In this document: positions 3,494-53,331 of the stretch, piece after piece
Layout of the letters: every line of letters begins with the position of its first letter
Position numbering within the stretch: position 1 is the first letter of the stretch
NCBI GenBank assembly: GCA_963826535.1
Contig: CAWGXL010000011.1
Coordinates: forward strand, 642,080-706,079
DNA length: 64,000 bases
Source: an uncultured bacterium
GTDB taxonomy: Bacteria > Patescibacteriota > Microgenomatia > Levybacterales > UBA12049
Direction of reading: 5' to 3'
The notes under the pieces: generated by a model
What the model was told of the DNA's origin: nothing
Database searches by the model: none
The model's input: only the letters and a program-made list of their open reading frames with translations
Made by a program: the position numbers and the translations under genes

Positions 3494-3834
3494 ATATCTA
3501 ATTTACGATTTAAGCTCTTTGAAAAGAGAAGAAACAGACGATTGTAAACCTGAGATTTATTTAACAATTTTAGGGCTGTTAAAAACCTAGACAAACGGTG
3601 AGCTTACAACTCAACCTCAACCCACATCGGGAACGGGCGGTTTTTTGCTCTTATGATTTTTCCTGTTCTCGGATCTTTCCGAGTCCATCGAAAAATCAAA
3701 ACCCGTTTAGTTTTTTTAATATGAATCACTCCTTTCTCCCGTATTCCGGGAATATCGTATTTAGCGATACGATAACTCAGGGAGTTTTTCTACAATCGTC
3801 TGGCTCTTCTCTTTTCAATTATTTTCATTAAAAT

Positions 3835-24188: not shown

Positions 24189-24950
24189 ATGTCAGCGAGT
24201 TTAGAAACACTAGGTAAATTATTTGCAGAAAGAGGTTATCAGACTTTGGCTAGAAGATTAATGGAAGAGGCACAAGGCTTTAGGGAAGCAGGCGGTCCTG
24301 AAGAATTGCATGTTAAACCTGACCCCATAGTTTTAGTATCAACTCCCAGTGAAAGAGTAGAAGGTTTAAAAGCTCCAGTAGTTGAGGCGCTTACTGAAAT
24401 TCAACGACTTTCTCCTGAACAGGTTTTGGGGCTAAGAGCAGTGGAATTTGATTTCGTTGTTCCGACCTATTCAAAATCAATGGAGCAATTAGTTCTAGAA
24501 GGACGCGGACGCTTTGGATATGTTAATGAATCAGCATCTTTCCGCAGCATTGTTGCTCCTGCAGCAGAAGTTGCTGTACGGTCGAAAAATTTAGCTATTC
24601 CCGGAAGCAATAATCTTTCTCTTGATGATCAACGTCAAATGGTAGCAGATTTTGAGAGCGCAGCAAGGAAAAAAAGAATGCCAAAGGGAGCAACTCTTAC
24701 AGGAATAACTTTTGGATTAGATCATGCTTCAACTCATACACAAATAGATTTTAGCTTTCAAGATCAAAATAAGGGTCGATTTCTTTATGAAGGTATGTTT
24801 GCCCGTACTGAAGATCCAACGTCTGGCTTCAACGTTGCGGATGTTGGTCGTTCTCCGGGCGATTCTGGGCTCGACGTCGGTGTTTGGGATCGCCACGGCT
24901 ATCGCCGCGTTTGGGCTGTTCCTGTGGCACGCCCAACTGGAAATAGATAA
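24189..24950 (+). CDS. DGR target protein (variable protein) with the variable repeat in its last ~40 codons
   Basis: The C-terminal coding sequence is the variable repeat, which differs from the cognate template repeat only at template adenines. Confidence 0.7.
   Translation: MSASLETLGKLFAERGYQTLARRLMEEAQGFREAGGPEELHVKPDPIVLVSTPSERVEGLKAPVVEALTEIQRLSPEQVLGLRAVEFDFVVPTYSKSMEQLVLEGRGRFGYVNESASFRSIVAPAAEVAVRSKNLAIPGSNNLSLDDQRQMVADFESAARKKRMPKGATLTGITFGLDHASTHTQIDFSFQDQNKGRFLYEGMFARTEDPTSGFNVADVGRSPGDSGLDVGVWDRHGYRRVWAVPVARPTGNR
24821..24930 (+). repeat. DGR variable repeat (VR)
   Basis: 110 bp aligned without gaps to the template repeat at 25243..25352. 15 mismatches, all at adenines of the template; the 3' 19 bp are identical and A-free (IMH-like). 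Confidence 0.85.
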
Positions 24951-25242
24951 TTGGTTTTTTGTTAATTTTGTCTTCTTGTTTTTTGGTTTTTCGAAAAAAT
25001 TTGCTACAATCAACTAAATAGGCAATGCAAGATTAAACACGCTTTGATTTTCGCCTATCTCTAGAACTTTCAGTAGTCAGGACTACGTTCATTCAAACTG
25101 AATGTGGGCGTACTTAAAGAAAGCCTTGCTAGACACTGCGAATACCACTCTTTTTCCGTTTATTTGGCGGATATATAAAATACAAGAGAGACTTTATAGA
25201 ATCTCTGGTGCTAATGGCTTAACGGAGAGGTATCCAATAAAG

Positions 25243-25352
25243 GTCTGACTTCAACGTTGCGGATGTTGGTCGTAATCCGGGCAATTCTAAGCTCAACGTC
25301 AATGATTGGAATCGCCACGGCAATCACAACGTTTGGGCTGTTCCTGTGGTAG
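25243..25352 (+). repeat. DGR template repeat (TR)
   Basis: Intergenic copy of the VR. AAT/AAC codons occur in frame at the variable sites (NPGNSKLNVNDWNRHGNHN). Confidence 0.85.
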
Positions 25353-25370: not shown

Positions 25371-25760
25371 TTATTGAGGAGAGTTTTGCTTGGTGGCCCT
25401 TATCCAGCCGCCAAGCATTTTTCCTATTTCTTGGAGTAATGCTTGGAGATTTATATACTTTTTATCTGTTATTGCTTGGCTATCTTTACCAAGTCGCAGA
25501 AGAACTTTGAGAAGATCAAGTTTTATGCTTATTCGTTTAAGAATAGTTACTTTATTTTCTGAAATAGGAATTGCAAAAAGCAATTCCATCATTTCCAAAG
25601 TTATATTATCAAGTTTCTGTCCAAGCGTGTAACGTTTGGTTTTGGGGAAACTTACTATTGTGTGGGTTAGGGTGTTGTAAAACTCATAAAGTTTGGTAAA
25701 TATGGGGATATCTAAGCCTACTATAGGTGTGTGTGTGTGTGTGTGATTATCTTTATTCAT
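25371..25760 (-). CDS. avd: DGR accessory variability determinant (Avd-like four-helix-bundle protein)
   Basis: ~129 aa. The C-terminus EIGKMLGGWIRATKQN parallels Bordetella phage bAvd EVGRILGSWIARVN. Helical heptad pattern throughout. Confidence 0.7.
   Translation of the reverse strand: MNKDNHTHTHTPIVGLDIPIFTKLYEFYNTLTHTIVSFPKTKRYTLGQKLDNITLEMMELLFAIPISENKVTILKRISIKLDLLKVLLRLGKDSQAITDKKYINLQALLQEIGKMLGGWIRATKQNSPQ
25727..25745. repeat. (GT)9 dinucleotide microsatellite at the avd 5' end / avd-RT divergent region
   Basis: gtgtgtgtgtgtgtgtgtg. It encodes HTHTHT if the avd ATG at 25760 is used. Confidence 0.8.
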
Positions 25761-25767
25761 AGCTAAA

Positions 25768-26787
25768 ATGAATGATTATTTACAGCTTATCTCAATTGAA
25801 AACATTTTTCAAGCATGGAGCGAGTTTCGTGTGGGCAAAAGAAAGAGGCAAGATGTGCAAGTCTTTGAAAGACATCTGGAAGATAATTTGTTTGAGCTTC
25901 AAGCTTTATTAAAAAACAAAACCTACAAACATGGAGGCTATCAATCTTTTTATGTCAATGATCCCAAGAGGCGGCATATCCATAAAGCAATTGTGGCAGA
26001 CAGAATAATTCACCATCTTCTTTATAAGTTTTTATACGCTTTGTTTGATAAGAATTTTATTTACGATTCATATTCGTGCCGTATAGACAAAGGCACACAT
26101 AAGGCAGTCAAGAGGCTGGAAAATTTTACAAGAATTGTCAGTAAAAATTATACAGGGCATTGCTGGGCGCTAAAATGTGATATAAAAAAATTTTTTGCAA
26201 GCGTTGATCACCGGATTTTGTTAAGTTTACTAAAAAGAAAAATAGCGGATCAAGATATTCTTTGGCTTTTAGCAGAGGTAATTGGGAGTTTTAATTCAGA
26301 TAAGGGGACGTATAAAGGAATTCCGCTTGGTAACTTAACAAGTCAAATATTTGCCAATATCTATATGAATGAATTGGATCAGTTTATTAAACACGATTTG
26401 AGAGCGATATATTATCTTCGCTATGCCGATGATTTTATATTATTGTCTGAGAATAAAAATATTTTGTATCCATGGATCAATACATCACGACAATTTCTTC
26501 AAACAAAATTAAAATTGGAGCTTCATCCAAAGAAAATAATATTGAGAAAACTTGATTGGGGAATCGATTTTTTAGGCTACATTGTTTTGCCGTATTACAT
26601 TCTGCCAAGAACAAAAACAAAACGAAGAATGTTTAAGAAATTGCAAGAAAAGATTGGATCAGATAATTTTAATGAATCACTGCAATCATATTTGGGTTAC
26701 CTAAAGCATGCCAATAGTTACAAGTTGAAAAATAAATTAAAAAACAAGATTTGGTTTTGGAATACTTCAATCGAACTGAATAGTTAA
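25768..26787 (+). CDS. Diversity-generating retroelement reverse transcriptase
   Basis: RYADDFILL (YxDD) catalytic box and the DGR-specific GIPLGNLTSQIFANIYM motif (LGxxxSQ replaces QGxxxSP). ~339 aa. Confidence 0.9.
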   Translation: MNDYLQLISIENIFQAWSEFRVGKRKRQDVQVFERHLEDNLFELQALLKNKTYKHGGYQSFYVNDPKRRHIHKAIVADRIIHHLLYKFLYALFDKNFIYDSYSCRIDKGTHKAVKRLENFTRIVSKNYTGHCWALKCDIKKFFASVDHRILLSLLKRKIADQDILWLLAEVIGSFNSDKGTYKGIPLGNLTSQIFANIYMNELDQFIKHDLRAIYYLRYADDFILLSENKNILYPWINTSRQFLQTKLKLELHPKKIILRKLDWGIDFLGYIVLPYYILPRTKTKRRMFKKLQEKIGSDNFNESLQSYLGYLKHANSYKLKNKLKNKIWFWNTSIELNS

Positions 26788-49951: not shown

Positions 49952-50439
49952 TATCGTGCAATACCGCCGCTGTTGCCTCCGCCGCTGTTGCCTCCGCCGC
50001 TGTTGCCTCCGCCGCTGCGAGGTGGGACAGGAGCAGAACCTCCATCGCCGTTACCGTTACTGTTACCTCCTCCGCTTCTGCTTCCTCCATCGTTACCACC
50101 ACTCCAGCTTTGTTGAGGTTGGGGCGGGGTGGTTGGAGATGGAGTTGGGGTATAAGTTGCTCCCGGGAATGTAAATAATTGTAAATTGTCCCGCGCATTA
50201 TCAGTAGTAGGGGGAGAGATGTTGACCGGTTGACCACTTTTTGGCGATACGCTAGTGATGGGTACGATATTGCCAATCATTGATGTTGCACCAAAGGCAA
50301 TTATTAATAGTGCAACAACGGCATATAGTGTTCCCGCACCCATTCCGCCTTTAAAAGTTCGCTTTTTTCTACTTGCTGATTTTAACTTATGTTTTGTACT
50401 GCGGGAATGATGTTTTACGCGGGCAGGTTTCTTTTTCAT
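49951..50439 (-). CDS. Small basic/TM/PT-rich/Gly-rich membrane protein, paralog A
   Basis: MKKKPARxKHHSRSTK...AGTLYAVVALLIIAFGATSMIGNIVP... followed by a (GGGNS)n tail. 80-90% identical to 52942..53331. Confidence 0.5.
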   Translation of the reverse strand: MKKKPARVKHHSRSTKHKLKSASRKKRTFKGGMGAGTLYAVVALLIIAFGATSMIGNIVPITSVSPKSGQPVNISPPTTDNARDNLQLFTFPGATYTPTPSPTTPPQPQQSWSGGNDGGSRSGGGNSNGNGDGGSAPVPPRSGGGNSGGGNSGGGNSGGIAR

Positions 50440-52941: not shown

Positions 52942-53331
52942 TTATCTTGCGATTCCTCCTGAGTTTGTGTTGCCTCCGGCAGGAGCAGAATGGCCTCCGC
53001 TGCCACTTCCACCGCTATTGCTCCAGCTTTGTTGCGGTTGTGGAGGGGTTGTTGGAGACGGAGTTGGTGTATAGGTTGCTCCGGGGAAGGTAAACAATTG
53101 TAAATTATCCCGCGCATTGTCAGTGTCGGGAGGAGAGACATTTACCGGTTGTCCACTCCCCGGTGATTTGCTTGTTAGAGGTACGATATTGCCAATCATT
53201 GAAGTTGCGCCAAAGGCAATTATTAATAGTGCAACAACGGCATATAATGTTCCCGCTCCCATACTTCCTCTGGAGGGACGATTTTTTGTGCTGCGTGAGT
53301 GATGCTTTGAGCGGGCAGGTTTCTTTTTCAT
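52942..53331 (-). CDS. Small basic/TM/PT-rich/Gly-rich membrane protein, paralog B
   Basis: Near-identical N-terminal 90 aa to paralog A; a shorter Gly-rich tail. Confidence 0.5.
   Translation of the reverse strand: MKKKPARSKHHSRSTKNRPSRGSMGAGTLYAVVALLIIAFGATSMIGNIVPLTSKSPGSGQPVNVSPPDTDNARDNLQLFTFPGATYTPTPSPTTPPQPQQSWSNSGGSGSGGHSAPAGGNTNSGGIAR

Follow-up and report, generated by a model that had tools for sequence, protein, structure and literature searches.

Here we describe a short dinucleotide repeat that lies between the only usable start codon of avd, the accessory gene of a diversity-generating retroelement (DGR), and the part of the gene that encodes the folded protein. We consider it likely that slipped-strand phase variation of Avd at this repeat gates mutagenesis by the DGR. 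Orthologous tracts in near-identical relatives differ in length and in reading frame; that the tract varies within the organism's own population, that OFF alleles lack Avd and that mutagenesis then stops are inferred. DGRs are especially abundant in bacteria of the candidate phyla radiation (CPR, Patescibacteria) and the control of their activity is largely unknown. To our knowledge they are the only natural system of targeted protein hypermutation in prokaryotes.

The window, by which we mean the whole 64-kb stretch of DNA that was analysed, contains a complete DGR with its parts in the order target gene with variable region (VR), template region (TR), avd on the reverse strand and reverse transcriptase (RT). 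The features of the locus are the following.

24189..24950, plus strand: target gene (253 aa) with the VR at its C-terminus, from the ORF list
24821..24927, plus strand: VR, a 107-nt repeat of the TR
25243..25349, plus strand: TR, on the same strand as the RT; the VR differs from it only at plus-strand A positions
25371..25760, minus strand: avd (accessory variability determinant), 129 aa, Pfam bAvd PF22296, E=6e-21
25383..25712, minus strand: folded Avd core predicted by the AF2 model, residues 17-126, four helices, downstream of the repeat
25727..25745, no strand assigned: repeat tract, (GT)9G on the plus strand and (CA)9C in the avd sense, codons 6-11, HTHTHT, from the sequence by regex scan
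25758..25760, minus strand: avd start codon ATG, the only usable one, the other two frames upstream of the tract being closed by stops and having no start
25761..25767, no strand assigned: spacer between the divergent avd and RT start codons, 7 bp, agctaaa
25768..26787, plus strand: RT (339 aa), RVT_1 E=1e-22, IPLGNLTSQ motif
25775..25802, minus strand: candidate avd promoter TTTTCA-16-AATAAT inside the first RT codons, 9/12, a consensus match only

The locus meets the criteria of a DGR as regards its TR/VR pair and its RT. The TR and VR, 316 bp apart on the same strand, show 15 mismatches, all of them at TR adenines (15/15), as the criterion of adenine-confined differences demands, and the RT combines an RVT_1 domain with the (I/L)GxxxSQ motif of DGR-type enzymes. 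The VR covers the last ~40 codons of the target ORF, which has no Pfam match over 24189-24950; DGR target proteins usually carry a C-type lectin fold at the VR-bearing C-terminus. Because the TR and VR differ only at plus-strand adenines, the TR RNA is plus-sense and avd is antisense to the TR, whose end is 21 bp from the avd ORF. The start codons of avd (25758-25760, minus) and RT (25768-25770, plus) are separated by exactly 7 bp.

An earlier note, made without database searches, had placed the avd ATG at 25760, 7 bp from the RT ATG at 25768, and had described avd as lying on the strand opposite to the TR and RT with the TR transcribed antisense to it. Both statements held, but the arrangement is a published one. 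Wu et al. (2018, Nucleic Acids Res 46:11; PMC5758913) define an architecture B3, TR-(avd)-RT, to which they assign 90% of CPR DGRs and which hardly occurs in other DGRs, and the window, with avd between the TR and RT on the reverse strand, meets its definition. In almost all of the best 80 RT relatives avd is likewise directly upstream of the RT on the opposite strand. The divergent layout, including the TR antisense to avd, is thus published B3, ordinary for CPR and not new.

The identity of Avd is supported by both sequence and predicted structure. Residues 22-121 match the family PF22296 with 75.3 bits (cut-off 40; E=6e-21), which meets the criterion for membership, and an Avd profile matches 4dwl_A with E=0.011. 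An AF2 model built with 32 homologues predicts a four-helix bundle (pLDDT 86.8; helices at residues 17-35, 40-66, 70-93 and 99-126), for which the best solved-structure matches found by Foldseek are the Bordetella Avd chains 8ub7_E and 4dwl_D (TM 0.87-0.91, rmsd 1.5 A). Residues 1-14 have a pLDDT below 50 and are predicted to be disordered, outside the bundle. In relatives without a repeat, Avd starts only 3-4 residues before the conserved DIPIF, as MNEFDIPIF or MDIPIF. Given the predicted disorder and the relatives that do without it, the repeat-coded tail is likely to be a dispensable carrier for the repeat.

The tract itself consists of (GT)9 at 25727-25744 followed by an extra G at 25745. 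On the avd strand it reads CAC ACA three times and encodes H6 to T11, confirming the earlier note's claim of a (GT)9 tract at 25727..25745 encoding HTHTHT at the Avd N-terminus. It begins 15 nt past the avd ATG and 22 nt upstream of the RT ATG. No other dinucleotide repeat of more than 4 units was found by regex scan in the 64-kb window, homopolymers of 9 or more bases are absent from it as well, and a first-order Markov model predicts only ~1e-5 such 18-nt tracts for a window of this length. A GTG near position 25724, suggested before as an alternative avd start, was rejected: there is no such codon on the avd strand, the in-frame codons that follow the tract being CCT ATA GTA GGC TTA GAT, and the next in-frame ATG, GTG or TTG is a TTG at codon 55, within helix 2. 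Since no alternative start exists near 25724, the tract is unambiguously inside the avd coding sequence.

This position makes the reading frame dependent on tract length. When tracts of different length were simulated, 6, 9 and 12 units gave full-length Avd in frame, and 7, 8, 10 and 11 units led to stops after 11-26 codons (after 24 aa with 8 units and 13 aa with 10). The assembled allele with (CA)9 is in frame and is thus, as read in silico from sequence alone, an ON allele. A contingency locus should have a repeat that is long enough to slip, lies in the 5' coding region or the promoter and has a unit size not divisible by three, and this is the case here. It should also switch ON and OFF with repeat length; this second criterion is met in silico only, a change of one unit in either direction producing a premature stop with no start codon to rescue it.

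The third criterion, variation in length, had to be judged from orthologous tracts in relatives and not from the population of the organism itself. Exact look-ups of the window RT and Avd proteins returned no other contig and the Avd cluster is a singleton; the collections searched hold no conspecific sequence, the best matches being 72% for the RT (genomes) and 80% for Avd (metagenomes). A scan with the RT, limited to one genome per species, identified more than 570 relatives. The best 80 are CPR DGR loci whose RTs are 49-72% identical to that of the window; all come from CPR/Patescibacteria MAGs, including some labelled Gammaproteobacteria.

A simple repeat occupies the avd 5' site in ~60% of ~150 related loci. 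The repeats are of many types, (CA)5-15, (AG)12, (GA)10, (CT)12, poly-C of 7-13, (GACA)10 and (ACAGA)5, with unit sizes of 1, 2, 4 and 5 and never 3 or 6, a property that is relevant only to the reading frame because units that are not multiples of three are those that shift it. In 72 loci of RT relatives, the region that separates the Avd core from the RT start comprises 3,482 of 547,525 bp (0.64%) and this junction holds 35 of the 52 long repeats, an enrichment of ~300-fold. Of the poly-G/C runs with at least 8 bases, 25 of 30 are found there, and of the dinucleotide runs with at least 5 units, 10 of 18. At the protein level, most of the 120 Avd homologues nearest to that of the window have (HT)2-6 of varied length at this place in the N-terminus, as do almost all of the closest ones (60-75% identity). 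Other tails include one ERERERE, and a more distant set starts with MPPP.

Codon usage indicates what is being conserved. Histidine within the HT runs is encoded by CAC in 134 of 134 codons, compared with 29% CAC and 71% CAT in the long ORFs of the window, and threonine is ACA except at the tract edges. The invariant use of CAC in all 134 histidine codons therefore indicates that the repeat is kept as DNA and not as peptide.

Length polymorphism is pronounced. Tract length differs in 11 of 14 repeat-bearing groups whose avd cores are at least 96% identical (mostly 100% over 300 nt). Loci L083 and L084, 99.25% identical over 4.1 kb, have 8 and 10 CA units and share an ATG that is in frame in only one of the two; L081 and L082, with 98.6% identity over 3.8 kb, have 15 and 13 units. 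Three assemblies from one Hainich aquifer well (L085, L086 and L087) carry 9, 7 and 6 units with 0-1 flank mismatches, and their ATG is in frame only with the 7-unit allele. Six lineages contain both ON and OFF alleles. These calls rest on consensus assemblies and not on reads, some of them (L085-L087) at only 1-2x coverage. The length-variation criterion is clearly met for the orthologous tracts; for the window tract itself it is only inferred.

Over all loci, 72 repeat-bearing lineages yielded 85 distinct alleles, of which 20 are in frame with the nearest upstream ATG and 28 are in frame if any ATG, GTG or TTG is accepted. The resulting share of 24-33% is not significantly different from the one third expected under free drift (p = 0.08 to 1). 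Where a mono- or dinucleotide repeat is absent, 57 of 60 loci have a plain ATG in frame, and the three exceptions consist of a tetranucleotide repeat, a pentanucleotide repeat and an interrupted C tract. The Avd cores of OFF loci are full-length and free of stops, and out-of-frame loci have a conserved leader peptide, such as MHTNKDI, in the frame of the ATG. Intact cores together with a conserved leader therefore indicate that avd is maintained by selection while being repeatedly interrupted at one site. The earlier note had proposed that slippage would frame-shift avd and act as a phase-variable ON/OFF switch, and had suggested comparing repeat length among strains. The proposal is supported by these comparative data from relatives' tracts; as for the comparison, lengths differ among near-identical relatives and no conspecific was found.

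Several loci deviate from the common pattern. The avd 5' site that holds mono- or dinucleotide repeats in other relatives is occupied by (GACA)10 in L118, ~60 nt upstream of the Avd core, and by (ACAGA)5 in L140; neither locus has an in-frame ATG as assembled. L015 has a G10 run (3629-3638) at the avd 3' end, on the TR side, and no repeat at the avd 5' end. Upstream of the repeat, L082 has a second start codon in another frame (an ATG 29 nt upstream of the tract), and L085 and L087 have a GTG 4 nt past the ATG in a different frame. In such lineages two of the three tract phases could possibly give Avd with different leader peptides, and OFF may be incomplete there because of the second start in the other frame. 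Finally, (GA)6-11 tracts lie inside the RT coding sequence of L016 (4572-4594), L018 (919-930) and L071 (2534-2554). All three encode RERERE in the same loop before GIPIGNLTSQ and are in frame (3/3). None of these loci was scored with an avd 5' repeat, the avd match of L016 being partial, so that phase variation in these loci might act on the RT itself. A (GA)n within the RT gene is a possible sister solution.

We propose the following mechanism. The (CA)9 tract would act as a hypermutable repeat between the sole avd start codon and the folded Avd domain, gaining or losing CA units by slippage during replication. With 6, 9 or 12 units Avd would be in frame and ON; at other lengths translation would end after 11-26 codons and Avd would be OFF. 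A change of a single unit would thus turn Avd off and a further, compensating change would restore it. The outcome gated in this way would be mutagenesis of the target gene at its VR (24821-24927). Avd is reported to be essential for retrohoming (PMC10053308), and in the solved Bordetella structures (8ub7) it is part of the active complex with RT and RNA. The Bordetella model needs Avd together with the RT for cDNA synthesis and retrohoming by the DGR. As Avd is required with the RT in Bordetella, cell lineages would switch mutagenesis of the target gene stochastically and reversibly. A need for Avd in CPR DGRs is assumed by analogy with Bordetella, where it is known, and it is not known from CPR. 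The absence of Avd from OFF alleles is likewise inferred, and transcriptional slippage or ribosomal frameshifting could supply some. That loss of Avd stops mutagenesis in this clade is also an inference.

A bolder reading, which we hold with less assurance and would favour only by a small margin, is that a conserved slipped-strand switch at the avd 5' end governs DGRs across CPR/Patescibacteria. According to this reading, the type of repeat would turn over (C, CA, AG, CT, GACA, ACAGA) with the site and the frame-shifting property retained. The result would be a device for evolvability with two tiers, a targeted hypermutator and a random, heritable and reversible switch that gates it. Since most natural alleles would be OFF at any time, a successful variant could be locked in and exploration resumed later.

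Other explanations of the repeat have to be weighed against a translational switch. The HT repeat could serve Avd as a peptide, for example as a His-rich tail that binds metal or nucleic acid, with the DNA repeat as a by-product of selection on the protein. In favour of this are the (HT)2-6 runs that most of the 120 closest homologues have at this N-terminal position and the fact that all three reading frames of (CA)n encode HT. We regard it as very unlikely: there is no synonymous variation (CAC in 134/134 despite the 71% preference for CAT), distant relatives lack the tail altogether or have PPP(P), ERERER or SLSLSL encoded by different repeats, the model predicts a disordered tail, and the majority of alleles are not in frame with the start codon, which a needed peptide would not allow. 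It is similarly improbable, in our judgement, that the tract is no more than a neutral microsatellite that a disordered tail can tolerate, perhaps under weak mismatch repair, with no regulatory role. The tail is dispensable, about one third of the alleles are ON, as neutrality would predict, and CPR genomes are reduced, all of which speak for neutrality. Against it stand the status of the tract as the sole long repeat in 64 kb, the ~300-fold enrichment at one site across 72 loci and at least five kinds of repeat at that same site. Only frame-shifting units occur, though neutrality in a needed gene would favour multiples of three, and intact ORFs downstream of the repeat in OFF alleles mean that avd is selected yet repeatedly interrupted.

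The tract might instead act mainly in cis, its length or a non-B DNA structure (Z-DNA in the case of GT) tuning the RT or avd promoters or RT translation. Its location between head-to-head starts is compatible with this, as are the distance of 13-30 nt between the tract and the RT start in relatives and the TTAAAGG-like sequence that follows several poly-G tracts before the RT start. There is also no terminator-like site between the TR and RT, so (GU)9 would belong to a TR-RT transcript. However, the repeats have unrelated compositions (C/G, CA/GT, AG/CT, GACA, ACAGA) and share no structure, their place is in every case between an ATG and the Avd core, their units are never multiples of three, a feature relevant only to the reading frame, and no convincing plus-strand promoter extends across the tract. 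A mainly cis-acting role is therefore unlikely. It is compatible with the frame switch and could possibly be an added effect on the RT; the earlier suggestion that slippage might affect RT expression is likewise not excluded. An error of sequencing or assembly, in the tract or in its length, is all but excluded. Repeats can be miscalled, some related contigs have 1-2x coverage and the poly-G/C tract of L058 coincides with a scaffold gap, but a 19-nt dinucleotide tract is well below read length and ~90 independent assemblies, from many projects and made with many assemblers, have repeats at the orthologous site.

Other observations concern the transcription of the locus and its RNA. The consensus scan that gave the candidate avd promoter is weak evidence, with 6 sites compared to 3.7 expected in shuffles, and none of its plus-strand matches spans the tract. 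A TGA(G/T)ATAAG(C/A)T-like sequence resembling an extended -10 element is found at 25775-25810 (minus strand) of the window and recurs at the corresponding position of relatives, 20-30 nt ahead of the avd ATG, where the other strand encodes the conserved L-I-S of the RT N-terminus. The avd promoter may possibly be dual-coded within the first RT codons. On the plus strand, TTTGCTACAAT (24997-25010), also extended -10-like, lies within the 290 bp that separate the target gene from the TR and is a tentative candidate for the promoter of the TR (and RT) transcript inferred from sequence alone.

Directly upstream of the TR, 25103-25238 (plus strand) gives a full-length, sub-threshold match to the Rfam RT-16 RNA (RF03019) with 29.1 bits against a gathering score of 50 (E 0.017-0.049) and with conserved AUAAAAUACA and GAA..GGU stretches. 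RT-16 RNA had no match at the gathering score in 17 related loci. This stretch could conceivably be a structured leader of the TR RNA. A LOOT RNA (RF03000) was found in L081 (1249-1376, minus strand) immediately downstream of the RT, with 76 bits against a gathering score of 46, and none was found in the window at the gathering score. Two identical 16-nt matches (15/16) to the middle of the TR, ~2.9 kb apart at 50273-50288 and 53192-53207 (minus strand), are at chance level (E=0.34); they might hint at duplicated sequence in that region.

The literature searched, including the Wu and Roux surveys, contains no report of a repeat-controlled avd or a phase-variable DGR; Paul et al. 2017 (PMC5436926) was not covered, so a prior mention is not excluded. 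The avd 5' repeat thus appears to be unreported, and is probably a known switching mechanism acting on a new class of gene, apparently widespread in CPR DGRs. Surveys class many DGRs as "inactive" (PMC8144416). If the switch is real, the repeat would provide a simple, heritable and reversible control of DGR activity, and it would account for the many CPR avd genes that look frame-shifted or have odd annotated N-termini. Specialists would find it surprising for a targeted hypermutator to be under the control of a hypermutable repeat. The repeat would also offer a ready-made design for switchable DGR-based mutagenesis tools, and the hypothesis is open to direct testing on existing metagenomic reads.

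Among DGRs, the closest known systems are the B3 elements (PMC5758913), whose order and orientation are identical to those of the window locus; the relevant sections of that paper do not mention a repeat in avd or variation in its frame. The DGR of Bordetella phage BPP-1 (avd-TR-brt; 4DWL, 8UB7) shares with the window the (I/L)GxxxSQ motif of the RT, the four-helix bundle of Avd and the adenine-specific transfer from TR to VR. In BPP-1, however, avd is co-oriented, upstream of the TR and has no repeat, whereas avd in the window is antisense, lies between the TR and RT and contains a slippery tract.

The mode of switching has its counterpart in classical contingency loci. Helicobacter pylori oipA undergoes phase variation through a CT dinucleotide repeat in its 5' coding region (PMC10564699), Campylobacter has phase-variable genes with poly-G tracts (PMC6321876), and tetra- and pentanucleotide repeats form the translational contingency loci of Neisseria or Haemophilus. 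Like these, the avd repeats have units that are not multiples of three, are located near the 5' end of the coding sequence and set the frame by their length, which varies between near-identical strains above an intact downstream ORF. Unlike the contingency loci of surface antigens, restriction-modification systems and transporters, avd encodes an accessory protein of a hypermutation retroelement; its hosts are uncultivated CPR/Patescibacteria and its start is head-to-head with that of the RT.

Two further systems resemble the locus in part. In Haemophilus influenzae, hifA and hifB have a (TA)n repeat in overlapping divergent promoters, where a repeat in the promoter spacer changes the transcription of both genes. 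The likeness is that of a phase-variation dinucleotide repeat between divergent genes; the repeat in the window, unlike that of hifA/hifB, is part of the avd reading frame and acts on translation, with any effect on the RT unproven. With phasevarions and phage contingency loci (bioRxiv 10.1101/2025.10.21.683753) the proposed switch has in common that a slippery repeat switches many downstream outcomes, a form of bet-hedging. In those systems the outcome is methylation-dependent expression or a structural trait of the phage, whereas for avd it would be the programmed mutation rate of another gene.
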